A DNA stretch of 64,000 nucleotides from an uncultured Gammaproteobacteria bacterium (GCA_964635715.1 CAZWNZ010000001.1:248122-312121); one strand, 5' to 3'; counted from the first letter of the stretch, positions 18,378 to 53,785 are shown. A program made the numbers and translations. The notes: generated by a model not told the origin, from the letters alone.

Positions 18378-19970
<1,593 letters not shown>

Positions 19971-21972: not shown

Positions 21973-21973
21973 C

Positions 21974-24405: not shown

Positions 24406-24417
24406 TTTTTCCTCCTT

Positions 24418-25325: not shown

Positions 25326-25609
25326 TTTAATTAGTTTTCTTCAGCGGTACCTTTCTTCCTTGGCAAAAAACACTATACACACCTTTAAAGGTCCGACCTT
25401 GTAAGGTGTGTAAAATCTAGAGTAGTCGGTTTGATTCTATTTGAATTTAGGGGTAGAATCGGGGTGTTTTCAATTTGCGGAAACAAAAATTGTCAGGAAT
25501 TATTTCCTGTTTTTATTTATCGGCTATAGCCTTGAGCGTAGTCGAAAGGTACTTTAACTTTTCAATCAAATTCATATTCAATTCTTTTTCAGAATGAGGA
25601 GGGAGAAAG

Positions 25610-25873: not shown

Positions 25874-25885
25874 GAAGGAGAAAAA

Positions 25886-26149
25886 ATGTCTTTTTTGACG
25901 AAATTAAAAAACTGGATTGGTATTTTTTCCCTGCAAATAAAATTAGGAAAAATTACCAGAAACGTTCAGAGACTGGAACAAGAGCCAGATATTTCGCAGG
26001 GTATGTTGGGATATGCGGTATATCTGAAAAATCAAAAGGAAAAAATACTTGTCCAAATATCCAAGTTAGAGGAGGAGAATTATGGAAAAAATAACGGTTT
26101 ATTTAAACGAATTAAAGAAGAGAGAAAGCCTGATTTGTTGTCTGAATAA
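25886..26149 (+). CDS. small hypothetical protein
   Basis: AAGGAG RBS; operon with its neighbours. Confidence 0.25.
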   Translation: MSFLTKLKNWIGIFSLQIKLGKITRNVQRLEQEPDISQGMLGYAVYLKNQKEKILVQISKLEEENYGKNNGLFKRIKEERKPDLLSE

Positions 26150-26405
26150 TGTTTCCTGGGGAGAAGGATACCACTCAAAGACAGCTTTCGGCAAATCCGA
26201 ACGGGTATCTTTTCCGGGGGACACAAACCTTTATTGGTGGGCTTTGGTTAATGATCTTGGTGCCATGGTTTTTGGTGTTCTCGAAGAAAGAACAGATAAA
26301 ATCATTATTATTGCCAACTGTGATCTTTCGGTTCGGCAAAAACTAATGGATGTCTTGGCCAATGTCTTTAAGGCCCCAGTTTTTTCAACCATAACGATAA
26401 ATTAG
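26082..26405 (+). CDS. small hypothetical protein
   Basis: GAGGAGGAG RBS; overlaps the previous ORF. Confidence 0.25.
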   Translation: MEKITVYLNELKKRESLICCLNNVSWGEGYHSKTAFGKSERVSFPGDTNLYWWALVNDLGAMVFGVLEERTDKIIIIANCDLSVRQKLMDVLANVFKAPVFSTITIN

Positions 26406-26628
26406 GAGGAAAGATGAGAAAAAATATCGGAAAGATTATCGCATGGTTTGTTGTGATTTTGTTCACCCTTTGTGCGATAGGTTCACTGCTTTTGTTCTAA
26501 AAGATATTTGATTGAAATTGTTGGGTAGTAGGCGGGAGCCGATCTTTGTAAAAAGACCGGCTCTTTTTTTGGCAAAATTACTCTTACATTAGAAGGGTGA
26601 AATCACACAGATTTATAATTTGTTGGTC

Positions 26629-26657
26629 TTGACGCCCAAATCCATTCAGGATATAAT
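26629..26657 (+). promoter_or_regulatory. sigma70-like promoter TTGACG-17-TATAAT inside the rRNA spacer
   Basis: Perfect 17-nt spacing; lies upstream of ORF 26815, tRNA-Ala, 23S and 5S. Confidence 0.5.
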
Positions 26658-26780
26658 ACGCTTACCTTGAAAAAGGTAAATCTTTTGAGTTCGGAATTTT
26701 TAATGAGAATCAACTTAATTTCTAAAAAACAAAGCGCGGCCCTGCGTGGTTAACGGAAATTAGTATCTTCTTTTTGAATT

Positions 26781-26808
26781 TACCGGCTCAAAAGCCGGTT
26801 TATTTTTT
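26781..26808 (+). terminator. hairpin plus T-run (attenuator or terminator) just before ORF 26815
   Basis: ccggctcaaaagccgg followed by tttatttttt. Confidence 0.35.
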
Positions 26809-26814
26809 GTCAAA

Positions 26815-27057
26815 ATGAAACACCTGTCCGACAAAGAAAAACTGGAAGCACTTTACATAAAGATAAATGAGGCTGAAACTAAATATCGGGAACGTCTGAA
26901 AAACTTCAGAGGTGTCCCGCACGAATCAGCCATGGGTGAACTTAATTTTTCCGAGCTTAAGGTTCGTGAAGATTTTGTTCGCTCTCTGAGGGAAGAGATC
27001 TCGCAATTAGAGAAAAAACTGGGACTGTCTACAAAATTGTCTCCGCATTTTCCCTAA
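26815..27057 (+). CDS. hypothetical protein encoded inside the rRNA spacer
   Basis: 80-aa ORF. Confidence 0.3.
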   Translation: MKHLSDKEKLEALYIKINEAETKYRERLKNFRGVPHESAMGELNFSELKVREDFVRSLREEISQLEKKLGLSTKLSPHFP

Positions 27058-27064
27058 TAGGTGA

Positions 27065-27137
27065 GGGCTCGAAGTTTATCTGGCTGAACACCTCATTTGC
27101 AATGAGGAGGTAGGCGGTTCGACCCCGCCCGAGTCCA
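27065..27137 (+). tRNA. tRNA-Ala (anticodon TGC) with a G3:U70 pair
   Basis: Acceptor GGGCTCG/CGAGTCC (G3-T70), D stem GTTT/GAAC, anticodon loop TTTGCAA, T arm GGCGG-TTCGACC-CCGCC. Confidence 0.8.
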
Positions 27138-27170
27138 CAAAATTTTTGAGTAGTGGAATATACCGCCACG

Positions 27171-27213
27171 GGGCTTAAAGGTAACTAAGTAGGTTCGATT
27201 CCTACTAAGTCCG
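27171..27213 (+). ncRNA. tRNA-like minihelix (acceptor stem plus T arm only) with G3:U70
   Basis: gggctta-aaggtaactaa-gtagg-ttcgatt-cctac-taagtcc-g; no D or anticodon arm. Confidence 0.3.
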
Positions 27214-27706
27214 CATTAATTCTGTTAGCGCAGAATTCTAGAACGTTAAAATTTGAAGATTTAAGGTTTTTTTAAAATGTGTAGGTAAGTGATAGGGAAT
27301 TTTAGATGAAGAAGTTTTATATTTCTTTTATCTTTTACCCTTTATCTTTTACCTATTATTAGAAGAGGAAGGTCGCGTCCCAAACTCGAATTTATTCGAG
27401 TTGTGTGGGATCGCAAGTAAACAACGCAGACAGTGAATGCCTTGCTTTTCGTCTCCGAAGAAGGACGTACATAGCCACGAAAGTCGCCGGTTAGCTGCTA
27501 CGAAGCTTTGACCCGACGGTGTCCGAATGGGGAAACCCATCCCGCTTTGCGGGATATCTTGAGGCCAAAATGTTGACGCAAGTTAATATATAACTTTAAG
27601 TATGGAAACCACCTGAACTGAAACATCTAAGTAAGGTGAGGAATATAAATCAACGAGATTCCGCCAGTAGCGGCGAGCGAAAACGGAACAGTCTAAACCA
27701 TTGTGC

Positions 27707-27835
27707 ATAGCACAAGGAATGTCACACAAATAAATACCAATAAACCAATAAATACCAATTTACAATGGAAACATTTAGAATTGGGCATTGGTGCACATTG
27801 GTACTTATTTGAAATTTGGCGTTTCCTGCGCTGTG
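27707..27835 (+). other. 23S intervening sequence 1 (5' domain)
   Basis: The 22-nt block cacaaggaatgtcacacaaata is identical to the 16S insertion; shares taccaat repeats and ggaaac...gggcattggt. Confidence 0.6.
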
Positions 27836-28029
27836 CAGGATGGGGTTGTAGGACTCTAATGTGAGATCTCTATTTTAGTAGTAGAACAGTCTGGAATGGC
27901 TGATCAAAGAAAGTGAAAATCTTGTATACAAAACTAAAATAGGCTCTAGGAGTATCCTAAGTACCACGGAACACATATTCTGTGGGAATCCGGGGGAACC
28001 ATCCTCCAAGACTAAATAAGACGAAAGAG

Positions 28030-28066
<37 letters not shown>

Positions 28067-28656
28067 CTGAGTGAGACACTCAATGAAATAGAACCTGAAA
28101 CTGTTTGCGGTCAAACCGTGAGAGCTGGTCGTAAGACTGGTGATCGCGTGCCTATTGAAGAATGAGCCGGCGAGTTTTCAGTTACTTCTTATGTCTAACT
28201 CCAATTTGGAGGGAGGCGAAGGGAAACCAAGTGTGAATAGCGCGTTTGGAGTAACTGGAAGACCCGAAACTGGGTGAGCTAACCATGAGCAGGGTGAGCT
28301 CCGATGAAAATCGGAGGGAGGCCCGAACCCGTTGTCGTTGTAATGACATGGGATGACTTGTGGTTAGGGGCAATATACTTATCGAACCCAGAGATAGCTG
28401 GTTCTCCCCGAAAGGTCTATGGGGACCGTGGTCCGTCACGTTCTGCTGGTTGTAGAGCACTGGCTGGGTTGGAGAGCGCAAGCAATTCAATCTAATCAAA
28501 CTCCGAATACTAGTGTGAGCTATCGGACTAAAAAGCCGCATCGGGCTAAGCTGATGCGACGAAAGGGAAACAACCCTTGACTCTCAGTTAAGGCCTCTAA
28601 ATTACATCTAAGTTTGAAAGGAAGTTTTCTTTCTCAGACAGCCAGGAGGTTGGCTC

Positions 28657-28694
<38 letters not shown>

Positions 28695-28771
28695 TGGTCG
28701 ATTGAGAGGATGCGCCTAAGATTTATCGAGGATAAGATGTATGCCGAAGCTAGAGATATCCGTGCCTTGCA

Positions 28772-28874
28772 CAGGAATGATTAATAAATACCAATAAACC
28801 AATAAGTATCAATCTCCAATTAAAACTGGAATTGGGAATTTGGAATTGGATTATTTGTAATTTGTCATTCCCGT
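28772..28874 (+). other. 23S intervening sequence 2 (helix-45 site)
   Basis: Inserted between ccgtgccttg and agagcgcgggtgtggtaggggagcgttcc; aataaataccaataaaccaataa is identical to IVS 1. Confidence 0.6.
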
Positions 28875-30263
28875 GCAGAGCGCGGGTGTGGTAGGGGAGC
28901 GTTCCAATTGCGGTGAAGGTGAACCGGAAGGTTTGCTGGAGCGGTTGGGAGTGAGAATGTCGGCTTGAGTAGCGTACAATACTAGTGAGAATCTAGTACG
29001 TCGAATGTCCAAGGTTTCCACTGCAAGATTCGTTCACAGTGGGTTAATCGGTTCCTAAGGCGAGGCCAAATGGCGTAGTCGATGGACAATTGGTTAAAAT
29101 TCCAATATATGTGTTAAATCGAAAGATCCCGCAAGGGATGAGCTAGGGATTGACTGAGCAGGAGTTTTGAAGCTTTTTCGTGAAGTAGAGTGCAGAAATC
29201 GAAGTAGTTCTGACTGGAAAATCCGTCAGAATGTTTAATTAAGATGGTGCAAAGTTCTCCGCGAGGAGGGCGATTTCAAACGCTTCAGCTTACAAGAAAA
29301 GATTCGTAGCGAGAGTTAACATATGCCGTACCGCAAACCAACACAGGTGGACTGGGGGAGCACCCTAAGACGATCGAGAGACAAATCCTCAAGGAACTCG
29401 GCAAAAAAACTACCCGTAACTTAGGGAAATGGGTTGTCCAGCGCAAGCTGGATTGCAACTAAAGTTTATTGGTCGACTGTTTATCAAAAACACAGGCCCG
29501 TGCAAAAGCGAAAGCTGAAGTATACGGGCTGACGCTTGTCCAGTGCCGGTAAGTTAAGAGGAGGGGTGTTCTGAACTTGTTTCAGGATGCTCTGAATTTA
29601 AGCTCCGGTGAACGGCAGCAGTAACTATAACTGTTCTAAGGTAGCGAAGTTCCTTGCCAGGTAAGTTCTGGCCCGCATGAATAGCGTAACGAGCTAATAA
29701 CTGTCTTGAGGGTTTACTCGGCGAAATAGCGATGGCTGTGAAGACGCGGCCTACTTCCACATGGACAAAAAGACCCCGTGGAGCTTTACTGCAGGTAGAT
29801 ATTGCTTTCATATTTTTTGATTGTCTAGAATAGGTGGGAGCCGCAAGGCGATCTTGTAATACCACTCGTTGAGAAATGTGAGGCTAACTCAATTCCGATG
29901 GAAACTCGGAAGAGGAACGTGTTTGCCGGGCAGTTTTACTGGGGCGGTACCCTGCCAAATTGTAACGCAGGGACGCAAAGGTTGGCTTTCTACCGATGGA
30001 AACGGTAGTTTTAAGCGTAAAGGTTTAAGCCAGCTTGACTGCGAGGGAGATGTCCCGAGCAGGTACGAAAGTAGGTCTTAGTGATCCTCCGAAGCACAAT
30101 GGGTGTGCTCGGAGCTTAATGGATAAAAGCTACCCCGGGGATAACAGAGTAGTCGCGCCCGAGCGTCCATAGCGACGGCGCGGTTCGCTACCTCGATGTC
30201 GGCTCATCACATCCTGGCGCTGAAGAAGGTGCCAAGGGTCGGTCTGTTCGCCCGTTAAAGTGA

Positions 30264-30301
<38 letters not shown>

Positions 30302-30428
30302 ACTCTATCCTGTGGAAGCGTTGGAATCTTGAGGAGAGCTGGGGACAGTACGAGAGGACCTCCCTGGAGGAATCCCTGGTGTGCCGGTTATTGCGTCAGC
30401 AGTAACGCCGGGTAGCTATATTCCTAAC

Positions 30429-30464
<36 letters not shown>

Positions 30465-30600
30465 TCCAAGATTAGGATTCCATATTAAATCCCCCGTAGA
30501 AGACGGGGTTGATCGGCAGGCACTGGAAGATCTGTAAGGGTTTAAGGTAACCTGTACGAATAGATTGATTCTTGCGATCCCACACATGTGGGGCGCGACC

Positions 30601-30718: not shown

Positions 30719-30840
30719 TGTTCTGGTGGTCAGTGCGAAGTGGCACCACCTGATCCCTTTCCGAACTCAGAAGTGAAACGCTTTAGCGCAGACGATAGTT
30801 TACGGGCAACTGTACGCGAAAATATGTCACCGCCAGAACA
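30719..30840 (+). rRNA. rrf: 5S rRNA
   Basis: gttctggtggt...ccgaactcagaagtgaaacg...cgccagaaca. Confidence 0.9.
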
Positions 30841-35202: not shown

Positions 35203-35534
35203 AATTTGACTTCTTTCTTCCTAAATTGTATAAAACTATATGGCTGGAATCGAAATTCCACGAATAAATGATGATAGAATAATATTCCCAGAGGGAACCC
35301 AGAAAGGGAATGTCAAGATTTACTGCGGAACCTGTCCATTAAATATTGACTGTCACGGTTATGATTCAAAAGGATTTGCAGAGATAGATAGGCCTCGCAA
35401 TATCAACCGCGGCCAATCACTTGCTACCTACATAGAGGAAAACGCTTCTTGCATAAAACAATAATATTTCTTGATAAAATATTCAATATTAATATTGGTA
35501 CTTATTGGTATTTATTGGTATTATTGCCTTAATG

Positions 35535-36971
35535 GCATTTCACTCAAAATACGTTTGTCAGCAATGCGGTTATGAATCTACAGGCTGGATGGGCAAATGC
35601 CCCGAGTGCGGAACATGGAATTCTCTTGTTGAAACGGTAGTTGAAACAAATTCCAACTCACAATCTCCAAGTTCCAAAAAATTTTCAAATTCCAAATCAC
35701 AAACTATCAAACTTTCCGATATCAAATCTTCATCAATTAAGCGTATTTCGACCAATATTTCGGAACTGGATAGGGTACTTGGTGGGGGTTTAGTTCCCGG
35801 ACAAGCTGTTCTTATTGCAGGAGAACCGGGGATCGGCAAGTCTACTCTTCTTACCCAATTAGCAGCAGAGTTGTCAGTCGGAGTTAGTCAAAGTCGGTCG
35901 GCTGAGCCGTTAGTTAAAACTAGTCAGAAGTTAGCCAAAGTTAGCTATGATACTAACCGCGCTAGCGGACCAACTATGACTAATTTTAACCGAAAAACCG
36001 TTCTCTATGTTTGTGGTGAAGAATCATCCTCGCAGGTTGCTGTGAGAGCCAAAAGGCTAGGTGTAAAAGGTGAAAGTATAGAACTTTTAGAAGAGACTGA
36101 TGTTGATAGTGTGATCAATCAGCTATCAACAATTAACAATCAACTATCCGCTGTTATTGTTGATTCTATTCAAACTATGACTACAGGTGATTTAACGGGG
36201 ATGGCAGGAAGTGTTGGACAAGTACGAGAGTGTGCGTTTCGGTTGCTTAAAGCCGCCAAAGAGAAAAACATTCCTTTATTCCTGGTAGGGCATGTTACCA
36301 AAGAAGGAACGGTGGCCGGCCCTGCGGTACTGGCCCACATTGTTGACACAGTACTCTGGTTTGAAGGAGACAAGACTTTAACCACACGCATTTTGAGGGC
36401 CGTTAAAAATAGGTTTGGCCCCACAGATGAGGTTGGGGTATTTGAGATGGTAGATAGCGGATTAAAACCAATGGATAATATATCAAAAGCCTTTTTGGAG
36501 AAAGGTAAAAAGCAAGTTTCCGGAAGTATTGTGACGTCAGTTTTGCAGGGAACCCGCCCAATTTTAGTTGAAATTCAGGCTTTGGTTGTACCCACAAAAC
36601 TGGCCTTTCCGCGCCGTATTGCGCAAGGAATTGACTCAAGACGATTGGAACTCCTTTTGGCAGTATTAACAAGGCGCTCCGGACTCCCGCTTTATGATAG
36701 TGATGTTTTTATAAATGTTGCGGGAGGTTTCAAAATCATGGAGCCCGCGAGTGATTTGGCAATTTGTATCGCAATTGCCTCTGCTTTTTATGATAAACCC
36801 CTGTCCGGTAATATTATTGCGGTTGGGGAAGTAGGGCTTTTGGGAGAAATCCGGGAGGTAGTTGCAGAGGAAAAACGCATTAAGGAAGCTAAACGCTTAG
36901 GTTTTACTGAGGCTGTTTCCTCAAAAAATTTTGGATATCTTAGTCAAGTTGTGAATCGGTTGCTGAAGTAG
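35535..36971 (+). CDS. radA: DNA repair protein RadA/Sms carrying a ~40-aa in-frame insertion after Walker A
   Basis: Zinc finger CQQCGY...CPECGTW, Walker A GEPGIGKST, KNRFG motif, Lon-like C-terminal domain. Confidence 0.9.
   Translation, partial: AFHSKYVCQQCGYESTGWMGKCPECGTWNSLVETVVETNSNSQSPSSKKFSNSKSQTIKLSDIKSSSIKRISTNISELDRVLGGGLVPGQAVLIAGEPGIGKSTLLTQLAAELSVGVSQSRSAEPLVKTSQKLAKVSYDTNRASGPTMTNFNRKTVLYVCGEESSSQVAVRAKRLGVKGESIELLEETDVDSVINQLSTINNQLSAVIVDSIQTMTTGDLTGMAGSVGQVRECAFRLLKAAKEKNIPLFLVGHVTKEGTVAGPAVLAHIVDTVLWFEGDKTLTTRILRAVKNRFGPTDEVGVFEMVDSGLKPMDNISKAFLEKGKKQVSGSIVTSVLQGTRPILVEIQALVVPTKLAFPRRIAQGIDSRRLELLLAVLTRRSGLPLYDSDVFINVAGGFKIMEPASDLAICIAIASAFYDKPLSGNIIAVGEVGLLGEIREVVAEEKRIKEAKRLGFTEAVSSKNFGYLSQVVNRLLK
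35872..35992 (+). repeat. MITE-like repeat element inserted in-frame within radA
   Basis: gtcagtcggagttagtcaaagtcgg ... actaaccgcgctagcggaccaactatgactaattttaacc; near-identical copies at 44138-44215. Confidence 0.55.
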
Positions 36972-37497
36972 TGTTTTTGTCATAAAAACATCTAGTCATT
37001 ACCTCTGCATTTTCTGAGTATCCACTTAAGCATCCATATTCACGAGCCAAGGTTCCACCTTTGTCATAGCTTATTATTTTGGTTCCTACTGCTATTCCTA
37101 TGGCTATGGCAGAATTCATTTCATCGGCTCCGTAAACGCTGATAACTAAATCATCAATATGTATAGCTCCGTCGTGCTTTGGAAGTTCGTTATTCGGTTT
37201 ATTGAGTGAATCGCACCGTTCCAGATCCTGCCTCTGCGAATATGCATGTAATAAAGCCATGCGTTTTGAACTTTCACTGACGTTTTCTCCAATTTCCTCA
37301 GTTTTTATAAATGCTGAATTTTTCCAGGTAATAGATACGGCAAAGTTAATGCCATGAAATTTTGGCAGAGAATCAAGTGAATCACGTACAACTCGTGCCG
37401 AACCGACAATGTTATTGGCAAGAAACTTTTTCTCTTTAGATATTGTTTTTGATTTTTCAAAAGATAAGTTTTCCAACCCAAATATCTCTTTAAACAT
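36940..37497 (-). CDS. hypothetical protein
   Basis: 185-aa ORF; overlaps the radA 3' end. Confidence 0.3.
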   Translation of the reverse strand: MFKEIFGLENLSFEKSKTISKEKKFLANNIVGSARVVRDSLDSLPKFHGINFAVSITWKNSAFIKTEEIGENVSESSKRMALLHAYSQRQDLERCDSLNKPNNELPKHDGAIHIDDLVISVYGADEMNSAIAIGIAVGTKIISYDKGGTLAREYGCLSGYSENAEVMTRCFYDKNTTSATDSQLD

Positions 37498-37640
37498 ACT
37501 TGTATTATATTCTATAGTGTCAATATTAACAAGTTATCCACATTTATTTTTGAGGAATTTTTTTGCCCGAAAATACGGAATGAAAGCTAGTTAAAAAAAC
37601 TATGGGGAAGTATATTTTATAGTATATTTACGTTATAGGG

Positions 37641-37670
37641 TTTGACAAATTTGACAGCGGGGTGTAACAT
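37641..37670 (+). promoter_or_regulatory. putative promoter TTGACA-17-TAACAT
   Basis: Motif spacing; followed by ~660 nt lacking ORFs before the sortase gene. Confidence 0.35.
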
Positions 37671-38335
37671 TTCTTTGAACCTTGAAAATTAAGGGAGGAT
37701 ACCCGTCCTGACCTTACCGTTCGCCTTCAGGTACTATTCGTACACGGCCCACGGAGCAGTTTCAGGAGGGTTTCACAAATTGCTGAAGCTAATTTTGGCA
37801 ATTTGCTCAAAAAAAGAGCATCGCCATCGTTGGGTTCTCCTCTAAAATAACCTTAGCGGAACTCGCCACGAGTAGAGATGCTCTTTCAATTACTTAACCA
37901 GACCTTTCGTAAAAAATGTCTGGACATGGGATTTGTCTTGCGGACAGGAAACTTTACTAACAATCAAGACAAATCGTAATCAGACTAAAACGATTATCAT
38001 GGCTTGTCAAGCCCCTTTGAGTGGCAAAATTGGCTTTGGTAGGGACGGGTGGAATATAAGCGAAGCTTGGCACTGAGCGCATAGCGCTCATTGTAGGGCA
38101 AAAAAAAGAGAGCGCTTTGTTCTGGATTTGAGGGACGGGTGGAATTTAGGGCAGGAATTCTACCCGCTCCTCAAGCTTAGAATGGGCGCTCTTTTTTTGC
38201 GGAATTCTACATAGATCCTATGACAGGATTCAAGAGCACTCGCAATTCATTGCGAGGATGAATTGAACGCTGACAGGCGTTCTAACCAGAACGCCATTGG
38301 AGCCGATTTTTTGTGATTAAATTAATATAATCAAC

Positions 38336-39022
38336 ATGTCTGGATACAATTTTATAAATTTGATAGAAGGCATAACTCCCCAAGAGGTTAATGTTGTTGC
38401 GGCTTCAAAAAAGGAAGATACAGAGCCCAAAAAAAAGCGTTTTTCAATAAAATTGACCAAGATGCTGGCTTTAATTGGTATTGCTATTTTGTTGATTTAT
38501 TTTGCTCCGATAGTATTTAATTTTATTAAATACAGACTTTCCAACAACGAAGTTAATAAGCTTACCGAGGCGGCTCAAAACGCCACAGAAAGAGCCTTGC
38601 CGCCTCCGGACCCAACTCTGCCCAAAACCAACCGTTTGTCCATCCCTTCAATTGGTGTGGATACGGAGATAGAGGAGTCGACCTACGACAATTACGAGAC
38701 AGCACTCAGGAAGGGGGTCTGGAGAGTATCCAATTTTGGTGAACCTGACATAACAGGGGCTCCGATTATTCTAGCTGCTCACAGGTTCGGATATCTGGCT
38801 TGGACTAATTCATACAGGCACTATAACTCTTTTTACAACCTACCAAAAGTTAAAGAGGGAGATATTGTTACCATAGCCTGGGAGCAAAGGGAGTATAGAT
38901 ACGGTGTTTATAAAACTGAGCAGGGCGAGGAAATTACCGATTACTCAGCTGATCTTATTCTTTATACATGCGAAAGCTTAAGTGGTAGTGAGAGGATTTT
39001 TGTATACGCAAAACTGATTTAG
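38336..39022 (+). CDS. sortase (cysteine transpeptidase)
   Basis: N-terminal TM; catalytic His in ILAAHRFGY; TLxTC motif LILYTCESL; RLSIPSIGVDTEIEE beta-strand signature. Confidence 0.75.
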   Translation: MSGYNFINLIEGITPQEVNVVAASKKEDTEPKKKRFSIKLTKMLALIGIAILLIYFAPIVFNFIKYRLSNNEVNKLTEAAQNATERALPPPDPTLPKTNRLSIPSIGVDTEIEESTYDNYETALRKGVWRVSNFGEPDITGAPIILAAHRFGYLAWTNSYRHYNSFYNLPKVKEGDIVTIAWEQREYRYGVYKTEQGEEITDYSADLILYTCESLSGSERIFVYAKLI

Positions 39023-39049
39023 TCCTGTAGTATTGACAAAATAATAATT

Positions 39050-39310
39050 ATGAGATACAATGCAGCCCTGATGAAAAAGTTAATAGCGATAGTACTTAGT
39101 ACTATGTACTTAGTACTTGGCGCAAACACAGTCAAAGCTGAAGACACAGTTACCGTCTGCACCCAGTATTACGGGGGCGGAGTTGTTTGTGGAGTTCACA
39201 CCCCTGTTGAAACCGGCATTGCAGACAACATTCCTCTTATAGCTTCAGGTTTTCTTGGCGCCAGCGGCGTTCTTGCATACTTGTCAAGAAAATTCAAAAA
39301 AACCGAATAA
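39050..39310 (+). CDS. small secreted sortase-substrate-like protein
   Basis: Signal peptide; C-terminal TPVETG, then a hydrophobic segment, then SRKFKKTE. Confidence 0.45.
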   Translation: MRYNAALMKKLIAIVLSTMYLVLGANTVKAEDTVTVCTQYYGGGVVCGVHTPVETGIADNIPLIASGFLGASGVLAYLSRKFKKTE

Positions 39311-39410
39311 GTAGTTAGTTAGAATCAGTCGAAGTTGGTCAAAGTTAGAGATTTGCTCTAACCAATTTCAACCAACTCCGACCAGTTTTAACTAAAAACT
39401 AAAACTAGGG
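39311..39410. repeat. palindromic copy of the MITE-like element
   Basis: gtcgaagttggtcaaagttagag and its reverse complement ctctaaccaatttcaaccaactccgac. Confidence 0.5.
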
Positions 39411-39672
39411 TTCTTTAACAAATCGAGGCAAAGCAAAGCGGAGTCCCTCTATAATTTTGGCACAAAGCGTGAACGAATAGTTCCAAAAAGCTGAGTGCGA
39501 AAATATGTGGGACAAAATTCTTTGGCAGATTATTAATCTGACGGTGAGATTCTGAAAATTAGAAGCTTAAGTTATTTTTTATTTTTCGTGTTTAGTTTTC
39601 AGACACTCACCGTTAGGTGGGTTCTCTGGCCAGAGAAATTTTATTTCAATCACACAAATAAGGAGGTGTGAG

Positions 39673-40725
39673 ATGAAAAAGACACTCTTTTTCATTTTTG
39701 TAATTCTTGTATTGGTTTCGAGTGCATCCTGCACTCAATCTGCAACCAAAACACAAGTTGCAGATATTGGTATTGACAGGGAAGCAACCGTTGTTCTAAC
39801 AGAAGTTGTTGAGGCAACGGAAGCACCCGCTACAAGTGAACCGGCAGCTGTAAATACAGAATCGGTTGTATACACCGTACCCAAGAACGCGATTCCTTTA
39901 ATAGATGGAAAGATAGGAGCTGTAAAAGGTTTCTTCTACGTTCTGAATAAGGAAGATCCGTATACCGCCGAATATCCATACCAGTCGCTCGTTATGATCA
40001 CTCTTGGCAACGGCAAGATCGAGATCGGAAAATACAGCGAAGCACTCACCGCCAGCGAAACTGAAGGCAATATTTTTGCAGATGTTTGCGCTGAGGTAGG
40101 CGGTTGCTCGGCTGTCATCTCCGGCTATACCGCTGGGCATGTTGGTATCACCGTCATTTTCGCCGGGTATGAAAACCCTGACGACTCATTGATTGGTGGT
40201 ATCAAAAATATGTTTGAACCCAGCAATTGCGGCGGATCGGGATGCAACACAATTTTTGCTCATAACATAAAAGGCAATGCATTAACCTTCGAAAAGAAGG
40301 CCAATGTCGTCGTAGCAAAATTCCTGACCCCGGCCGAATCGCCGTATGCAAGCGTCAATTTCAGATATGATGGTGTTCCTTCGGGAGCAATCGTCATACG
40401 GGATGATGCTAAAAACATCATCGGCCACGAGTATTTTCTGACCGATAAGGACGCATTCGTTTCTGTTCCTGAGGGCGGTGGCACTCTTATCTATTGCGGT
40501 GCAAAAGCCACAATTGACGATGTAAATTGCCCAGCGGGAACAGCGATGCTCTTTAAGGGCATAAAATCTGATGGTGCTACACCCTCAGATTTAAACTACA
40601 CGATTAATCTCGTGACCACTGACTCTTCAGCAATCCGGGTTGTGATGATCTACGCTGCTGAATCGTTCGAAGGTCAAATCGCCCAGTTTAAGGCGCAATA
40701 TCCTGACTGGGACTGGCCAGAGTAA
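39673..40725 (+). CDS. putative lipoprotein / secreted protein
   Basis: Signal peptide with a lipobox-like LVSSASC. Confidence 0.4.
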   Translation: MKKTLFFIFVILVLVSSASCTQSATKTQVADIGIDREATVVLTEVVEATEAPATSEPAAVNTESVVYTVPKNAIPLIDGKIGAVKGFFYVLNKEDPYTAEYPYQSLVMITLGNGKIEIGKYSEALTASETEGNIFADVCAEVGGCSAVISGYTAGHVGITVIFAGYENPDDSLIGGIKNMFEPSNCGGSGCNTIFAHNIKGNALTFEKKANVVVAKFLTPAESPYASVNFRYDGVPSGAIVIRDDAKNIIGHEYFLTDKDAFVSVPEGGGTLIYCGAKATIDDVNCPAGTAMLFKGIKSDGATPSDLNYTINLVTTDSSAIRVVMIYAAESFEGQIAQFKAQYPDWDWPE

Positions 40726-40873
40726 TAAAGTAACAAATGTTTGCCTCGATTAGGCCCTGCTTAAGCATTTTGCTTTTTCTTTCACCGTTTTGGTGTTTGA
40801 TTAAGTAATTTGTTTTTGCAGGGCCGTTCGACTTAGCGAATAATTTCACTTATTATTAATTAAGTCGAACGAA

Positions 40874-43780
40874 ATGAAAAAATACTGCTCAAATCTCCTT
40901 TACCCATTATTAATTATTTTTTTGGTAGGCTTCTTGGCTTTCAAAAATTATGTTCCCGGTACTTTTCTTTCCGGTTGGGACACACTCCATCCTGAGTTCA
41001 ATTTTCATCTTTATTTAAATAGAATTTTATCCGGTGTTTGGCAGGAACACCAAGGGGTAGGGGCCGTTGCCGCCCAATCCCACGCAGCAGAACTTACAAG
41101 AATAACTTTCCCTTATTTTTTATCTTTAGTTTTGCCTATTAATTTAGTTAGATACGCTTTTATATTTTTGACTTTAGCTATTGGGGGGATAGGACTTTAC
41201 TATCATGCAAAATATATACTTTCAATTTCTTTGGAAAAATCCGTAAAACCGGCGGCTTTTTTAGCCTCAATTTTCTATATTTTAAACCTCGCGACAATTC
41301 AGCAATATTATGACCCATTAGAAATGTTTACGGTTCATTTTGCTACACTTCCGTGGCTATTTTTCCTCGCAATTAAATATCTTCGCGAAGGTAAAAAGAA
41401 AAATATAATTTGGTTTTCAGTTGTTACGATTCTTTCATCATCCATTTCTCACACAGCAACACTTTTTTATGTTTATTTCGGTTTGTTTTCCTTATATGTT
41501 TTAACGGTTGCTCTTTTGACAAAAAGTAAAGGCAGATTTAAGAGAGGAGGATTTTTGGTTGGATTAACTCTAATATTAAACCTCTTTTGGTTGGGACCAA
41601 ATGTCTATTATGTTACAAAAGAGTCTCAGACAGTTAGCAATTCGCAGATTAGTAAAACCTTTTTGACAGAGGCGTTCCTGCAAAGTCGCGCTTTTGGAGA
41701 TTCCCAAAATCTGGCTCTTTTAAAGAACTTTCCATTTAACTGGCGGGAGTTTGATTTTTCAGAAAATGCTTTTGTCGATCAAATGGCTCCTTGGATCTCT
41801 CATTTGGGAAAACCTTATATAAAGGAGATTGGCTATGTTTTTATGGGTTTGTCGCTTTTGGGAATTGTTGTGGCCCTTTTTCGAAAACAAAAATATGCCC
41901 TTTCATTTTTGCCAATTTTGGCCGTTTGTGTGATTTTCTGGATTAATGAAAATCCTCCATTTACGGTAGTTTTTGCATATTTGAGGCAAAATATTCCTCT
42001 TTTTGCAGAAGCGCTGAGATTTCCATTTACTAAATTTTCAATACTACTCATCACCTGTTTATCTGTTTTTCTAGCATTTTCTTCTCATTTTGTTTTAAGA
42101 ATTTTTGCCAAAATCAAGTTGCAATTTCTAGTTGTTCCGGCAATTTTGGCTTGTTTTATCTATTACACACTACCTGCCTTTAATGGATATTTTATTGATC
42201 CGGCCATGAAGGTTGATATTCCAAATGAATATTTCCAGGTTTTTTCTTGGTTTGAGAAGCAGGATTCTAATGCTCGTGTGGCAAAGTTTCCCATTCAGTC
42301 TTTTTGGAACTGGGTTTATTATTCGTGGGGTTATCAAGGTGCGGGCTTCACTTGGTTTGGAATTCCCCAAGCAACAATGGATCGTGAGTTTGACCGCTGG
42401 GGTCTTTACAATGAGGACTTTTATTATCAGGCTTCAAACGCTCTTTATTCGGGTAATAGCCAGGCACTCTATAACGTTTTTGACAAATATCAAATTAAAT
42501 ATTTTCTTCTTGATGAGTCTGTGATTAATGCGGGAGGGAATTCCAAAATCCTCTACACAGAAGAGCTGAAAAAAATGATCGCTGAATATCCCGATTCCAT
42601 TCATGAAGTAGCAAAATTTAACTTTTTAACGGTTTATGAAACTAAATTTGGTGATTATGACAAATATGTTTGGGCTCCAAGTGAATACAAAGAAATTAAT
42701 ACGGACATGACATATGCAAAAGTAGATCCCTTGTATGCAACTTATGGGGATTATATAGAGGATGGAAATATTAGTTTTCCATTTGTAAATATGGATAAAA
42801 GGGGAGATATAAAGATTTTTGTTGTTGAATCTAACCCTGCAACAAGCTCAGCTAAGCTAACAATTGAAAATATAGAAACAAATGATAAAGTAGATCTAAA
42901 TATATCAAATACTATTAAAACGAGCCTGGAGAGTGGCAACGGTTTTGAAACGGCACATAACTGCGATATTAAAGGAATCGGAAGTGTCTATAGGGACTAT
43001 GTAACAGATGGGGTATTGTATAGGGCGGAGGATGGCGGAGTTTCCTGTGATTATGCAAATTATCCGGATTTGAAGTATTCCCAGGCATATATCCTTCATA
43101 TAGTTGGAGAAAATAAAGAAGGTCGGAGTTTAAAAATTTATCTAATTAATTACCAGACTGAAAGAGCAGATCTAGAAGAACTGCTGCCGGAAGGTAAGTT
43201 TGATGAAACATATTTTATTTATCCGTCTGTTTTGGATGGGTCGGGATACACTCTTGATTTTGAGACGCGTTCCTATGGGAAAATTGCTTCGGAGAATCTC
43301 ATTTCTACAGTTGAATTTTATCCTGTTGATTATGCTTACCTGGCGAACTATAAAACCAGTGGCTCAAAGATAATACTTGAGGAAAGTGTTTCTAATGAGA
43401 TTGGTCGGATTCAAAATAACCTCCAAATTAAATCGGTTAAAAAATACGTGACGTGGGGGTACTCGGTTGAGACCGAAGGAGCAGGTCTCATGGCCCTAGG
43501 GCAAGGCTACGAGCGCGGTTGGATCGCAGTCGGAGTTCAAGGTTCTAAATTCAAGGTTCTGGATCACAAAATGGTCAACAGTTGGGCAAACGGATGGATA
43601 GTAGACAATAATCAAAGTTGGTCAAAGTTAGTCGGAGTTGGTACTAACGGCAAAGCCGACCAATTACAACCAGTTTCAACTATTTACTTGTTTTTCTGGC
43701 CCCAGGCCCTGGAGTGGGGAGGAATGGCGGCAGGGGTGATTACACTAATATTTATTTTGGTTAAAAATAGTCGAAGTTAG
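40874..43780 (+). CDS. large polytopic membrane protein (GT-C/YfhO/arabinofuranosyltransferase-like) with an extracytoplasmic C-terminal domain
   Basis: About 14 TM helices in the first 480 aa, then a ~480-aa soluble domain and a C-terminal TM; the last 60 codons and the stop codon come from MITE-like repeats. Confidence 0.4.
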   Translation: MKKYCSNLLYPLLIIFLVGFLAFKNYVPGTFLSGWDTLHPEFNFHLYLNRILSGVWQEHQGVGAVAAQSHAAELTRITFPYFLSLVLPINLVRYAFIFLTLAIGGIGLYYHAKYILSISLEKSVKPAAFLASIFYILNLATIQQYYDPLEMFTVHFATLPWLFFLAIKYLREGKKKNIIWFSVVTILSSSISHTATLFYVYFGLFSLYVLTVALLTKSKGRFKRGGFLVGLTLILNLFWLGPNVYYVTKESQTVSNSQISKTFLTEAFLQSRAFGDSQNLALLKNFPFNWREFDFSENAFVDQMAPWISHLGKPYIKEIGYVFMGLSLLGIVVALFRKQKYALSFLPILAVCVIFWINENPPFTVVFAYLRQNIPLFAEALRFPFTKFSILLITCLSVFLAFSSHFVLRIFAKIKLQFLVVPAILACFIYYTLPAFNGYFIDPAMKVDIPNEYFQVFSWFEKQDSNARVAKFPIQSFWNWVYYSWGYQGAGFTWFGIPQATMDREFDRWGLYNEDFYYQASNALYSGNSQALYNVFDKYQIKYFLLDESVINAGGNSKILYTEELKKMIAEYPDSIHEVAKFNFLTVYETKFGDYDKYVWAPSEYKEINTDMTYAKVDPLYATYGDYIEDGNISFPFVNMDKRGDIKIFVVESNPATSSAKLTIENIETNDKVDLNISNTIKTSLESGNGFETAHNCDIKGIGSVYRDYVTDGVLYRAEDGGVSCDYANYPDLKYSQAYILHIVGENKEGRSLKIYLINYQTERADLEELLPEGKFDETYFIYPSVLDGSGYTLDFETRSYGKIASENLISTVEFYPVDYAYLANYKTSGSKIILEESVSNEIGRIQNNLQIKSVKKYVTWGYSVETEGAGLMALGQGYERGWIAVGVQGSKFKVLDHKMVNSWANGWIVDNNQSWSKLVGVGTNGKADQLQPVSTIYLFFWPQALEWGGMAAGVITLIFILVKNSRS

Positions 43781-43803
43781 TCAAAGTTGGTTGGAACTGG
43801 ATT

Positions 43804-44142
43804 ATGGAAAAACTTAGAATCTATCAAACAGCTTTGGATTTAGTTTTGGAAATCTATAAGCTCATACAGCAAGATTCAAAACTTGCTAGAGATTGGTCGC
43901 TTTGCGATCAAATAAAGAGAGCATCTATTTCTGTGGTTGCCAATATCGCTGAAGGATATCTAAGATCCAAAAAACAATTCAAAAATTACTTACAAATAGC
44001 CTCAGGTTCAGCTAATGAAGTTGTAGCTCACTTGCAAGTGATAACAAAAGTTTATGGAAATAATACCGATAAATTACAAGAATCATACAAAGTTCTTGCA
44101 CGTCAAATAGGTGCATTCTCCAAGACTCTCGGCCAGAGCTAG
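43804..44142 (+). CDS. four-helix-bundle protein (TIGR02436, '23S rRNA intervening sequence protein')
   Basis: VANIAEGYLRSKKQFKNYLQIASGSANEV signature; flanked by repeat copies at 43768-43800 and 44138-44215. Confidence 0.8.
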   Translation: MEKLRIYQTALDLVLEIYKLIQQDSKLARDWSLCDQIKRASISVVANIAEGYLRSKKQFKNYLQIASGSANEVVAHLQVITKVYGNNTDKLQESYKVLARQIGAFSKTLGQS

Positions 44143-44215
44143 TCAGGAGTTAGTCAGAGTTGGTTTGCAGACTAACCGCAATAGCGGACCAACTTGACTA
44201 ATTATAACTAACTAT
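44138..44215 (+). repeat. MITE-like repeat copy that also supplies the stop codon of the upstream gene
   Basis: agctagtcaggagttagtcagagttgg...actaaccgcaatagcggaccaacttgactaattataac. Confidence 0.55.
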
Positions 44216-44389
44216 TGACCCAATACCCCATAATTCTTGACTTTTAGCCTCAAAAATGATAGTATGTCAACCTTAGGTGAATATTTGCTCTTTAAAATTT
44301 TTCCTCAGAAACACACCCTAAATTCATTTTAGAGGTGTTCGAACAATCTAAAAGAATTCAATTTTTGAAACACTGCATGGAGGTGCAGA

Positions 44390-45115
44390 ATGACAACCTC
44401 AAAAATAATTCCGTTCTACGAAGTTCCAATTGAGCTACTTGTTGCAAAGCAAGAACAATTGGCAAATAATGGCCATCGCCCGTTTTATTCGCCGGATGGC
44501 CAAGTTGCAGGGTTTATTAGCCCGTTTTCCGCGACCCGGCATGTTGCCCAGGTGCAAGTCGATGATGACGGTAAAATCGTCGCTTTTGACTTTGATCAAA
44601 TGGAACGTACTGATGGTCGAATGAATGTTCATGATCCTTGGGGTCATGCAACACCCAACGCAATGGTAGTTGTTTTGGAACGAACCAATGATGGTACGCT
44701 TCTTGTTCACTCGGTAAAGGAAGTCCGTCCATTCATGTATGATCACCGATCGGGTGTCAAAGGCATGACTATCATTGGTGTAACTGGTAAATGGGCAAAA
44801 TCACTGGGTGCAAATCCGGCTGAAACAGCTCTCCAAGGACTGATGGCAGATTCCGGCATTGAAGTCGACGAAGGTTCTGTCGAACTTCTCGGGATTCATA
44901 ATCCCAATCGTGCCTGGGTTGAGACCTGCAACGAAGTCTTCGTGGCGATTTTTAAGCGCAAGATTGTGCCTGTAGCAGATGGTACTCACGATCAGGTCTT
45001 GCCTGATGGTGTTTATCCCCTCGCGGATTTTCCGCTTGGACCAGATGCTTTGGTCAACTCTGTTCTTTGGCTTACCGCCAAGCATTTTGGCTGCATTTCA
45101 TCCAAACCCTTGTAA
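44390..45115 (+). CDS. hypothetical protein
   Basis: 241-aa ORF. Confidence 0.35.
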   Translation: MTTSKIIPFYEVPIELLVAKQEQLANNGHRPFYSPDGQVAGFISPFSATRHVAQVQVDDDGKIVAFDFDQMERTDGRMNVHDPWGHATPNAMVVVLERTNDGTLLVHSVKEVRPFMYDHRSGVKGMTIIGVTGKWAKSLGANPAETALQGLMADSGIEVDEGSVELLGIHNPNRAWVETCNEVFVAIFKRKIVPVADGTHDQVLPDGVYPLADFPLGPDALVNSVLWLTAKHFGCISSKPL

Positions 45116-51456: not shown

Positions 51457-51617
51457 TAGTGAGTGGACTCGCCGGGAATTGTGTGCACAATATCACACCC
51501 GAGCACTATCGATTCCCAAGAGGGCACGAACTTTAGTGAGTGGACTCGCCGGGAATTGTGTGCACAATATCACACCCGAGCACTATCGATTCCCAAGAGG
51601 GCACGAACTTTAGTGAG
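51457..51617. repeat. two tandem 77-bp direct repeats plus a third partial copy; each begins with the 3'-terminal 17 nt of tRNA-Ala(CGC) plus 7 nt of trailer
   Basis: Units at 51457-51533 and 51534-51610 are identical by eye; the third copy at 51611 runs into the tRNA. Confidence 0.85.
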
Positions 51618-51688
51618 TGGACTCGCCGGGAATTGAACCCGGAACTTATCAATGCGAATGATACGGTATACCGTTTGCCTACGAGCCC
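51618..51688 (-). tRNA. tRNA-Ala (anticodon CGC) with G3:U70; the D arm is atypical
   Basis: Reverse complement: GGGCTCG ... anticodon stem-loop TATCA-TTCGCAT-TGATA ... T arm CCGGG-TTCAATT-CCCGG ... CGAGTCC-A. Confidence 0.65.
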
Positions 51689-51897: not shown

Positions 51898-53745
51898 ATG
51901 CCCAAAAATACATATACAGTTAAAGAGGTTGCCAATCTTCTGGAATTTTCTACAAATACAGTTTACAAGTATCTTGATGATGGCAGTATTAAGTCGGTTC
52001 GTTTTGGGAGTGAGGGCCGATTCAGGATTCCCAGGACAGAAGTCGAACGTCTTCTTCAAGAGAGAGGGAAAACTTTACCTGAAGATTCAACCATATCAAA
52101 AAACCAAAATTTACATGGAATAAGAGGAATCCCTAGTTTATTTGATTGGTTTGTTGCATTTTTATCTATTTCGATAGGGTTTTCAATTTTTATCTTTCCT
52201 GTTCCAAGCGCTGTTCGGGTGGTCTTTGATCTAAATAAGTTTGTCATTCCGCTTCAGGTGATTTTATTGCTTGGTGGTTTTCTCATCTTGGTCTTGGATA
52301 TGTTTAGGATGCATGACAGCCGCCTACGCAAATCTATAAATTTAATTGTTGGAATTGACTACTTGGTAACAGCTCTTGTGTTTGCTTTTGCGGACAATTT
52401 TCCCTTGACCGTCGGTTATTTGGCGGTTGCATTTATTGTTATATTGTCAGTTTTTATAAAAATGGGCCAATATACAAGATTTCTGCTTTTTATAAACCTA
52501 TTGCTTGTTTTTCTGGGGATAGGAGTTTTGGGTTGGCCTGATACGTTTTTTCTTGCCGGTGTAATCGGAGTAAATTCAAAAAACTTAATAATTTTCTTTT
52601 CGATATGGTCACTTTTGATGATATTTAATGTTTACATGACATATTTTGCAATCAGAAAAAATAAACACCTTGTTTGGTTTCTTGCATTTCCAACAGCTCT
52701 AACATCTCTTTTGTATGCAACGATTAGTTTTACACAAGGGCTTTGGGCTAAGGCGATTTATTGTGTTGTTTTGTCGTCTTTTGCCGTAATTTTCCCCTTT
52801 GCTGACGAATTTGAAGCATTTACTCTGAAGTCAAAAAAAGAGGTGGCTGCCAGTTTTGCATGGCTTCTTGGTCTTTTCCTGGTCGGATCACTCATGCTTT
52901 ACTATATCTTTCGTTCATTTCAAAGTTATGGCTTCTTAGAACTGACTAATAGAGTCGATACCGCTAGTGATATTGTCACAAATTTCATGGATGGAAATAT
53001 CGCAAAGATCTCTGCATTTGCTGTCGACGAGGAGTTGATCGGTGCTATAGAAAACTATTCCGGGGACAATATCAATTTGGCAAATAATAAATTGAAACAA
53101 CTATACCAAGCGTCCAATTGGTCGATTCGAAGAGTGGTGTTAGTTGATAAGAACGGGATAATTCTCGATACATATCCTCTGAACCCATCAAGTCAGGGTG
53201 TAGATATTAGTAAACGTGACTATTTTGAAAGCGTTAAGGTAGGTGGTCAAACTTTCGTGTCGGGGATCGAGCAACCAAGCTCATCAGGACTCAGCCCTGT
53301 GGTTTTGGTTTCAGTTCCCATAATCGATTCTAGCGGAGATTTTTTGGGAGTTGTTATGGGAGATACCGATTTGGATGAACTTACAAGAAGAGTTAATCAA
53401 ATTAAATTTGGACAAAGTGGAAGTTATTTATTAGTAGATCAATTGGGTAAATATATCATTCCACCAACTAAGGATCAGATAATGGCAAAAGCCTCTGCCG
53501 GAAGTCCCGCATCGATGGTAGTTTTGGGTGAAAAAGGTACTTTGCAAGGAGAAGATTCTTTGGGAGAACTTTCTTTAATTGCCTATGTAAAAGTTAATAA
53601 ATACAGTTGGGGTATAGTGGCTCAACAACCGGTTGATGAGGCATTCAATCCATATAGCAAAACTGTCTTTATCACGTTTCTGATATATGTAACAGCAGGG
53701 GTAGGAAGTTTAATTCTTGTATTTTCGTCACAGAGAAAGCAATAA
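51898..53745 (+). CDS. fusion protein: excisionase-family HTH, then a polytopic membrane domain, then an extracytoplasmic Cache-like sensor domain and a final TM
   Basis: N-terminal VKEVANLLEFSTNTVYKYLDDGSIKSVRFGSEGRFRIPRTEVERLL (HTH_17 / excisionase-like); about 10 TM; the C-terminal ~230 aa look like dCache; last TM VFITFLIYVTAGVGSLILVF. Confidence 0.5.
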   Translation: MPKNTYTVKEVANLLEFSTNTVYKYLDDGSIKSVRFGSEGRFRIPRTEVERLLQERGKTLPEDSTISKNQNLHGIRGIPSLFDWFVAFLSISIGFSIFIFPVPSAVRVVFDLNKFVIPLQVILLLGGFLILVLDMFRMHDSRLRKSINLIVGIDYLVTALVFAFADNFPLTVGYLAVAFIVILSVFIKMGQYTRFLLFINLLLVFLGIGVLGWPDTFFLAGVIGVNSKNLIIFFSIWSLLMIFNVYMTYFAIRKNKHLVWFLAFPTALTSLLYATISFTQGLWAKAIYCVVLSSFAVIFPFADEFEAFTLKSKKEVAASFAWLLGLFLVGSLMLYYIFRSFQSYGFLELTNRVDTASDIVTNFMDGNIAKISAFAVDEELIGAIENYSGDNINLANNKLKQLYQASNWSIRRVVLVDKNGIILDTYPLNPSSQGVDISKRDYFESVKVGGQTFVSGIEQPSSSGLSPVVLVSVPIIDSSGDFLGVVMGDTDLDELTRRVNQIKFGQSGSYLLVDQLGKYIIPPTKDQIMAKASAGSPASMVVLGEKGTLQGEDSLGELSLIAYVKVNKYSWGIVAQQPVDEAFNPYSKTVFITFLIYVTAGVGSLILVFSSQRKQ

Positions 53746-53785
53746 ACCGACAAATAAATTGGAAAAACAAAAGTTAAAAAATAAA

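Follow-up and report, generated by a model that had tools for sequence, protein, structure and literature searches.

Palindromic elements between and in frame within genes of a Woesebacteria-like genome have the arms of a 23S_rRNA_IVP cassette

Introduction

Short palindromic repeats inserted in frame in genes, the Rickettsia palindromic elements (RPE), have been described in Rickettsia (Ogata et al. 2000, as summarised in PMC10969869). Another kind of insertion, the intervening sequence (IVS), is in Coxiella 428-444 nt long, has a 28-bp terminal stem and an S23p open reading frame (ORF), and is excised by RNase III (PMC4990558). The origin and function of IVSs are unexplained, and an old proposal by Ralph and McClelland gives the ORF a role in mobility (PMC4990558). 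For rRNA genes of the Candidate Phyla Radiation (CPR), short ORF-less insertions and IVP ORFs are on record (PMC11270868). Here, a family of small palindromic repeats is described in 64,000 nucleotides of DNA (one strand, 5′ to 3′) deposited under an uncultured Gammaproteobacteria bacterium (GCA_964635715.1, CAZWNZ010000001.1:248122-312121), a stretch that is below called the window. Copies are located between genes as well as in frame within radA and a membrane-protein gene, and their arms are also the ends of a cassette carrying a 23S_rRNA_IVP (S23p, PF05635) gene, below the IVP gene.

Among bacterial repeats in general, transposable elements of the miniature inverted-repeat kind (MITEs) and the REP/REPIN group (BOX, ERIC, Correia, and REP with RAYT) are small, non-coding, inverted-repeat or palindromic and multi-copy, and often lie at gene ends. 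To our knowledge, Rickettsia is essentially the only case in which "selfish" palindromes are found in frame in essential genes, and we know of no transposase activity of 23S_rRNA_IVP. The IVP protein is a four-helix bundle, which we take to be a relative of the nucleic-acid-binding Avd of diversity-generating retroelements.

Results

Five loci of one repeat family were found in the window, every one on the + strand and all between 35.87 and 44.22 kb. A preliminary reading made from the nucleotides alone (the sequence-only reading) had pointed to the same five loci, and that they form a family, which a copy search could have failed to show, was borne out by pattern statistics and by an independent repeat search. 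The core pattern GTCRRAGTYRGTCRRAGTYRG, with up to two mismatches, had 7 matches against 0.00 expected from 100 dinucleotide-preserving shuffles, and the repeat search paired 35920-35975 with 44139-44194 at 80% identity (family D19) and grouped 39315, 43598 and 43757 (family D17).

The window has a G+C content of 40.6% and, judging from its RadA homologs, belongs to Candidatus Woesebacteria (CPR). It was compared with loci of relatives labelled L119, L121, L122, L123, L129, L130, L131, L132, L133, L134, L136 and L137, L133 being the closed genome CP066686.1. The closest relative found was L129, which has an IVP protein 94% identical to that of the window and a RadA of 450 aa; its identity to the window was 88% in the region of the IVP gene and copy E, 78% in radA and 66% in the 3′ part of the membrane-protein gene. 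The block order S1 - radA - sortase - small VETG protein - ... - ~1000-aa membrane protein - ... - Rho is conserved. The copies and the features that host or adjoin them are:

35532..36971, + strand: radA, 479 aa from the ATG at 35532; Pfam Zn_ribbon_LapB, AAA_25, ChlI
35866..35997, + strand: copy A, composite in-frame palindromic element in radA, encoding SVGVSQSRSAEPLVKTSQKLAKVSYDTNRASGPTMTNFNRK; subunits A1 (~35872-35920) and A2 (~35921-35992), both + strand, from sequence and fold
39050-39310: 86-aa VETG-type (sortase-substrate-like) ORF; copy B begins right after its TAA
39311..39410, + strand: copy B, intergenic, near-perfect palindromic form, from sequence and fold
40874-43780, + strand: 968-aa membrane-protein gene, hosting copy C and overlapping copy D
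43527..43538, + strand: empty M1 site (gcagtcggagtt, AVGV) in the membrane-protein gene
43608..43690, + strand: copy C, ~23 codons (NQSWSKLVGVGTNGKADQLQPVS) inserted in frame in the membrane-protein gene
43762..43803, + strand: copy D, consisting of a left arm alone, which is the IVP cassette's left terminal repeat
43804..44142, + strand: 23S_rRNA_IVP (S23p, four-helix-bundle) gene, 112 aa, PF05635 with E 3.4e-23; cargo between copies D and E
44136..44218, + strand: copy E, a full element located at the IVP gene's 3′ end, 80% identical to copy A2 of radA; conserved in L129

The consensus of ten copies, from the window and two relatives, reads TAGTCAAAGTTGGTCAGGAGTTAGTCAAAGTTGGT...ACTAACCGCAATAGCGGACCAACT.TGACCAATTT.AACTA. 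Two to four words of 10 nt (AGTYRGTCRR) make up the left arm, a small G+C hairpin (CCGC-N4-GCGG, CGGC-AAA-GCCG or CGGCT-G-AGCCG) forms the centre, and the right arm repeats the left one as an imperfect reverse complement and ends in GACYAATTNTAAC; units are ~75-130 bp long and contain no ORF. Copy A is composite, with an A1-type unit (left-arm words and the CGGCT-G-AGCCG mini-hairpin) nested in, or expanded within, a full unit. The number of words varies among orthologous copies, and the M1 copy of L137 is an array made wholly of left-arm words.

On either strand, single copies fold to long hairpins (z -1.5 to -6.6). The whole radA insert forms one hairpin of -46.6 kcal/mol (z -6.2) in which the outer left arm of A1 pairs with the right arm of A2, a pairing from which a nested or expanded copy follows. 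Copy B folds at -32.3 kcal/mol on the + strand and -36.5 kcal/mol on the - strand (z ~-6 ) and copy E at -26.9 kcal/mol (z -3.8). In a 17-pair stem compared across 13 copies, standard pairs take up 90.6% of the cells, as opposed to 16-44% with the partner slid. A G-U strand-asymmetry test gave no consistent strand preference, the window copies folding slightly better on the - strand and those of L119 on the + strand; the palindrome is therefore conserved, with nothing that points to a role in DNA rather than in RNA or the reverse. The Rfam search returned no family above threshold, only sub-threshold microRNA-precursor-like matches of the kind that generic hairpins give. Intrinsic terminators were considered and rejected, because the copies have no U-tract and run on into A/C-rich sequence, and because none of the 7 terminator-like sites in 35400-44500 falls on a copy.

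In radA, copy A separates the helix that follows Walker A (GEPGIGKSTLLTQLAAELS) from the strand TVLYVCGEES. In an alignment of 23 RadA sequences, most Woesebacteria have 0-10 residues between LTQLxxxL(S/G) and VLYVCGEES and the window has 41. Against minimal orthologs the insert adds 41 codons, and it adds 32 against L129, which has 35 nt (NLYLKSQNS) where the window has 131 nt; the earlier estimate of about 40 codons added between Walker A and VLYVCGEES, with the frame kept, agrees with this alignment. The same family occurs with the same radA junctions (TCAGTYGGAGTT ... ACTAATTYTAACC) in the window, L119 and L123, the inserts of the latter two encoding 35 and 29 residues, respectively. An insert shared by relatives that lack the repeat, the outcome which the sequence-only reading had named as fatal to it, was not seen: L119 and L123, with the insert, carry the repeat, and L129 has no insert. 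When aligned to S. pneumoniae RadA 5LKM, the break falls between residues 113 and 117, in the loop from the post-Walker-A helix to the next strand, and the insert is accordingly predicted to be translated as a surface loop.

In a RadA tree from which the insert columns were excluded, carriers and non-carriers come out as sisters (67% bootstrap for WINDOW+P0003 and 96% for P0004+P0078), a distribution that requires several losses or several site-specific gains. A further copy of the family is present in the N-terminal linker of RadA in L119, L121 and L123 only, and the window, L129 and L122 are without it. In this linker, after the zinc ribbon, the words gtcgaagttggtcgaagtcggtcagag..cggttaaaac (VEVGRSRSESV) were noticed at L123 715-760, L119 8495-8545 and L121 2950-3000. 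Directly upstream of the radA start in L119, at 8270-8385, there is a run of ~14 copies of the 7-mer CAGTAGT.

One RadA loop is occupied recurrently by different hairpin elements. In the position of copy A, L121 holds an unrelated palindrome with the words CAGTCAGTTATCAG / GAAAACTGAAAACCGAC (-37.3 kcal/mol, z -5.2), and further unrelated palindromes are found there in L133 (-34.8 kcal/mol) and L134 (-29.1 kcal/mol, z -4.7); empty sites of this loop fold at 0.0 kcal/mol. The L121-type insert appears in four scattered branches of the RadA tree.

The membrane-protein gene has two sites. At site M1, which follows GW.AVGV, a copy is present in L119, L129 and L137, and the window (43527-43538), L121, L122 and L133 have an empty site; the three copies are full and in frame, and start with the same sequence as the empty site of the window, gcagtcggagtt. 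At site C the window, L119 and L137 carry a copy, the site is empty in L121, L122 and L133, and L129 has there (8290-8325) a different short insert, ccagataccaaataccagattc (ESEIPDTKYQI). The words of this L129 insert resemble those of the sister family in the rRNA genes described below. Since orthologous sites are empty in relatives, insertion or loss of the coding copies is proven, and the earlier observation that copies are both intergenic and in frame within coding sequence, in radA and the 968-aa gene, stands. Element words are already present where copies are absent, as gcagtcggagtt at the M1 site of the window and as GTCAAAGCTAGACGGAATTAG at the membrane-gene end of L119.

The coding copies, at four sites in two unrelated genes across genomes, use one common frame and have lengths that are multiples of three. 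They encode 23-41 residues rich in Ser, Gly, Val, Thr and Asn, with the consensus SVGVGQSWS..LV.VG..TNR.SG.T.TNFN. As read from the sequence, the other two frames of the centre (ACTAACCGC) and of the right arm contain TAA or TGA, so that selection explains the use of a single frame; in the intergenic copy E, a 1-nt deletion puts a TGA in the frame used by the coding copies. The host ORFs are intact with all conserved motifs, and conserved host sequence resumes downstream of every coding copy. Together with the one frame and the related peptides, this makes translation of the inserts the economical reading, and the coding inserts are probably translated.

The sequence-only reading had also held that the repeat forms the C-terminal codons and the TAG of the 968-aa protein and, more generally, supplies stop codons, and both statements need to be divided. 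Copy D does overlap the final codons and the TAG (43778-43780) of the 968-aa ORF and adjoins the IVP start codon, whereas copy C is internal, upstream of the conserved C-terminal segment FWPQALEWGG and a transmembrane helix. The stop of the IVP gene (TAG, 44140-44142) is indeed inside the left arm of copy E, as it is inside a copy in every relative examined. The TAG of the 968-aa ORF, on the other hand, may be native, as L119, which has neither element nor cassette at the membrane-gene end, finishes with the homologous codons GTC AAA GCT AGA CGG AAT TAG.

The arms of the family are the terminal inverted repeats of a cassette of ~430-441 nt carrying 23S_rRNA_IVP. In L121 and L132 it is built of a left arm, a TTATAAT box beside the start codon, the IVP ORF, and a right arm that holds the stop codon. 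The arms flank the IVP gene in L121, L132, L137, the window and L129, and left arms homologous to copy D precede it in L119, L121, L129, L132 and L137. In minimum-free-energy folds of the cassettes at L132 5556-5985 and L121 6276-6716, the termini pair around the IVP ORF. Four configurations, at two positions and in both orientations, were found in one syntenic block:

After the sortase gene, sense: L119, L121
After the sortase gene, antisense: L132, L137
After the membrane-protein gene, sense: window, L129-L131
After the membrane-protein gene, antisense: L122

In L119 (11489-11900), an IVP gene shortened at the 3′ end continues directly into the 3′ part (VETGIAEN...) of the small sortase-substrate gene, itself without its 5′ part; this fusion is a deletion by which cassette and neighbour were joined. 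L136 has, in an unrelated neighbourhood close to argS, two convergent IVP genes (565-1015 and 1190-1650), each bounded by inverted repeats of other words (ATTCGGAR; GTTGTGGGTT), one of them with a TATAAT box at the start codon. The arm words of the IVP cassettes of L136 and L122 had no second copy within the flanks examined.

Orthologs of copy B, diverged, are present in L119, L121 and L132, and other sequence takes its place in L129. A motif, GTTCTTTAACA(N)ATCGAGGC, comes after the copy B site in the window (39407-39432), L119 (11994-12015), L121 (7090-7112) and L129 (3916-3940); it is kept with or without copy B in these four of the syntenic loci checked, and the 350-aa gene downstream could have in it a promoter or leader element. 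Three unique intergenic hairpins of the same block, at 38086-38205 (-58.8 kcal/mol), 39511-39630 (-42.7 kcal/mol) and 40756-40875 (-48.4 kcal/mol), are not members of the family.

A sister family, with the 10-nt words AATACCAATA / TATTGGTAYT and a common TTGGT core, was identified in the rRNA operon of the window (16S 18374-19969, 23S 27410-30580, 5S 30722-30838):

18440..18575, + strand: palindromic insertion in the 16S gene, -45.4 kcal/mol, z -5.0
27700..27835, + strand: palindromic insertion in the 23S gene (5′ domain), -51.9 kcal/mol, z -6.9
28770..28885, + strand: second palindromic insertion in the 23S gene, -42.6 kcal/mol, z -5.4
35490..35520, - strand: partial copy of the words (tattggtacttattggtatttattggt) just upstream of the radA ATG, repeat-search family I14

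The 16S copy and the first 23S copy have the common flank "cacaaggaatgtcacacaaata", and the rRNA insertions are IVS-like helix extensions. The 16S and 23S genes are ~7.4 kb apart (19969-27410). The ~5 kb between 16S and tRNA-Ile (25147) hold ORFs on the opposite strand, among them a 711-aa TrwB/TraG/HerA-like coupling-protein homolog (21974-24109, -) and a PT-repeat protein (20295-20963, -); a DUF87/TraG-like gene related to the former is located near radA in L122.

Elsewhere in the window, a perfect 77-nt tandem duplication (51457-51610) adjoins tRNA-Ala(cgc) (51617-51688, -). A giant ORF of ~3189 aa (53717-63286) contains many internal repeats of ~300 nt with 60-83% identity (repeat-search families D1-D11) as well as ACTGCAACA-type stretches with a 9-nt period, and the window ends in Gly-rich repeats.

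Discussion

We consider it probable that the copies constitute one family of ORF-less palindromic elements, RPE-like and with the arms of an IVS-like IVP cassette, in Woesebacteria. Copies would then be gained and lost at particular sites, and genic copies would survive only in a stop-free orientation and frame, at permissive loops. The short copies are most simply taken to be miniature derivatives of the IVP cassette that were seeded locally around it. Spread by hairpin- or microhomology-guided insertion and loss by hairpin-mediated deletion are plausible, and no enzyme was identified; the first words present at the empty sites fit microhomology-guided insertion and hairpin-mediated near-precise deletion equally well.

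Several observations weigh against this reading. The DNA sampled for the family comprised the window and 10 kb of upstream flank, 74 kb in all, and no copy was found in the other 55.6 kb of the window or in the flank. All five loci are inside 8.35 kb, a range so narrow that five uniformly placed points would give it with a chance of ~7e-4 (n·r^(n-1) - (n-1)·r^n, r = 0.113), and genome-wide dispersal is thereby not seen. Copies are located at orthologous positions in genomes with merely 73-85% RadA identity, from which it follows that most of them are old and not recently mobile. Target-site duplications, which the sequence-only reading had proposed to look for, were not recognised when the occupied and empty junctions of radA, M1 and C were compared, the genomes being only 66-88% identical, so that short duplications could have been erased. 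No transposase or recombinase Pfam family matched the ~40 long ORFs of the window. Covariation in the stem was not above that of shuffles (95/500; 13 copies). No further host proteins with the encoded peptide were found by a word-index search or by a HMMER scan of 1.84 billion representatives; the latter returned 7 unrelated tandem-repeat proteins only, and a 30-column motif is too weak for a library of that size. The RadA-loop palindromes of L121, L133 and L134 had no second copy within the flanks examined. In an AlphaFold2 model of RadA made from the 23-sequence alignment, residues 118-153 are coil with pLDDT ~24, in a model that is poor overall (mean pLDDT 47.7), and the term surface loop therefore rests on the alignment to 5LKM. 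Finally, the derivation of the miniatures from the cassette has shared arms and proximity as its sole support. Searches further afield gave no additional members: a scan of genome contigs with GTCRRAGTTRGTCRRAGTYRG had no CPR locus among the matches listed, only single matches in Bacillales and other unrelated genomes, and a scan of metagenome contigs with AGTTRGN{3,20}CTAACCGCNNTARCGGAC gave 5 matches, all of one unrelated sequence.

The restriction to one 8.35-kb block, with orthologous positions in several genomes and identical radA junctions in the window, L119 and L123, would also be expected if the copies had never been mobile and were old, lineage-specific low-complexity loops and gene-end hairpins, whose likeness is kept by local gene conversion or slippage and whose differences between genomes are deletions. 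Slippage would account for the varying number of 10-nt words between orthologous copies and for the all-left-arm array of L137, and the first element words at the empty M1 site of the window and at the L119 gene end could be taken in the same way. Nevertheless, we regard this explanation as unlikely. Four coding sites in two unrelated genes, together with intergenic sites, have the full arm-hairpin-arm architecture, and over 56-70 nt one pair of copies has 80% identity; several nodes of the RadA tree join carriers and non-carriers as sisters, the same RadA loop is occupied by at least three further, unrelated palindromes, and the IVP cassette with the same arms is found at two positions and in both orientations.

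Less probable still is that the hairpins are kept for a role in RNA, as sites for processing by RNase III or for mRNA stability through which the expression of radA, the membrane-protein gene and the IVP gene is set, the peptide being secondary. The stability of the hairpins, above all that of the radA insert, and the sense orientation of all copies relative to the + strand genes would suit such a role, as would the sister family with its helix extensions in the 16S and 23S genes and the fact that IVS stems are RNase III substrates (PMC4990558). Folding is however without strand asymmetry, covariation is not significant, there is neither a U-tract nor a coincidence of any of the seven terminator-like sites with a copy, no Rfam family was above threshold, and close relatives manage without the radA hairpin. 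Ribosome bypass is known from T4 gene 60 and the mitochondrial "byp" elements, and stable hairpins within ORFs resemble bypass elements. That the coding copies are untranslated, being cut from the mRNA or bypassed by the ribosome, or that the host genes are pseudogenes, is nonetheless hardly credible, as every coding copy is stop-free in the same frame, a multiple of three in length and encodes a conserved peptide, as the intergenic copy E has by a 1-nt deletion acquired a TGA in that frame, and as the host ORFs are intact, with a conserved C-terminal segment downstream of copy C.

An RPE-like family with cassette arms can be extended to a wider proposal, which we find possible but doubtful: 23S_rRNA_IVP (S23p, PF05635) cassettes might be a class of mobile element whose word-periodic terminal inverted repeats give rise to ORF-less miniatures, these would colonise rRNA genes (there as classical IVSs), intergenic DNA and permissive protein loops, and the IVP protein might recognise the 10-nt-phased words and promote insertion, excision or processing. 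If true, the mobility of IVP cassettes would give a function to the S23p family and an origin to the IVSs, both unexplained since the early 1990s. Arms in common with an IVP cassette that changes place and orientation among close relatives are comparative evidence on whether IVSs and S23p ORFs are mobile. A second, unrelated case in a CPR bacterium would make in-frame palindromes a more general phenomenon, one tolerated by reduced genomes, and the repeatedly hit RadA loop is a natural experiment, either on the places at which proteins accept insertions or on target choice by hairpin elements. For CPR metagenome-assembled genomes, such insertions also mean inflated and split gene calls and less clear ortholog alignments.

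Compared with known systems, the family resembles MITEs and REP/REPIN in being small, palindromic, multi-copy and located at gene ends, and differs in that neither target-site duplications nor a cognate transposase were found. The units are small, have no transposase ORF and have terminal inverted repeats that pair, as in MITEs, but the only ORF-bearing element with matching ends encodes 23S_rRNA_IVP, and within the DNA sampled the five loci are in one cluster. The label MITE-like, under which the sequence-only reading had presented the family, is not supported in the strict sense and is unproven; an RPE-like element family with IVP-cassette arms is the better description. In L119, a Y1_Tnp (RAYT-like) gene is located next to radA (6798-7508, -), flanked by its own palindrome, cttgtaaggtggcaccYtgcaag. 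A RAYT/REP relation was rejected, as the palindrome of this gene is a different one and tblastn against the window gave nothing better than E 0.13.

The sister family has its likeness in the CPR rRNA insertions, being <200 bp, without an ORF and located in 16S and 23S genes; a term search of PMC11270868 for "palindrom" and "hairpin" had no match, and this search brought up neither a word-periodic palindromic anatomy nor kin outside rRNA genes. A literature search found no description of such an element family for this phylum.

With RPE the family has in common that repeats are both intergenic and in frame in unrelated genes, with empty ortholog sites (two sites in radA and two in the membrane protein, across genomes), that a single frame encodes a conserved peptide, that the hosts are intact and that no transposase is known. 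The differences are that RPE belong to Rickettsia and the present family to CPR Woesebacteria, a different phylum for which no sequence similarity to the families RPE-1 to RPE-10 is expected, that RPE number dozens genome-wide whereas 5-7 copies are here confined to one gene block, and that the arms are here made of 10-nt words common to an ORF-bearing IVP cassette, one RadA loop being used by several unrelated families. The cassette itself is like the ORF-bearing IVSs of Leptospira and Coxiella (PMC4990558) in its length of ~430-440 nt, in the complementary, paired ends that enclose an S23p/23S_rRNA_IVP ORF, and in its sporadic distribution and varying position between relatives. It differs from them in being located between protein genes and not in helix 9, 25 or 45 of 23S rRNA, the AGTYRGTCRR family and the cassette both lying outside the rRNA operon and only the sister family inside rRNA genes, and in having its own TTATAAT box as well as ORF-less relatives inside protein-coding sequence.

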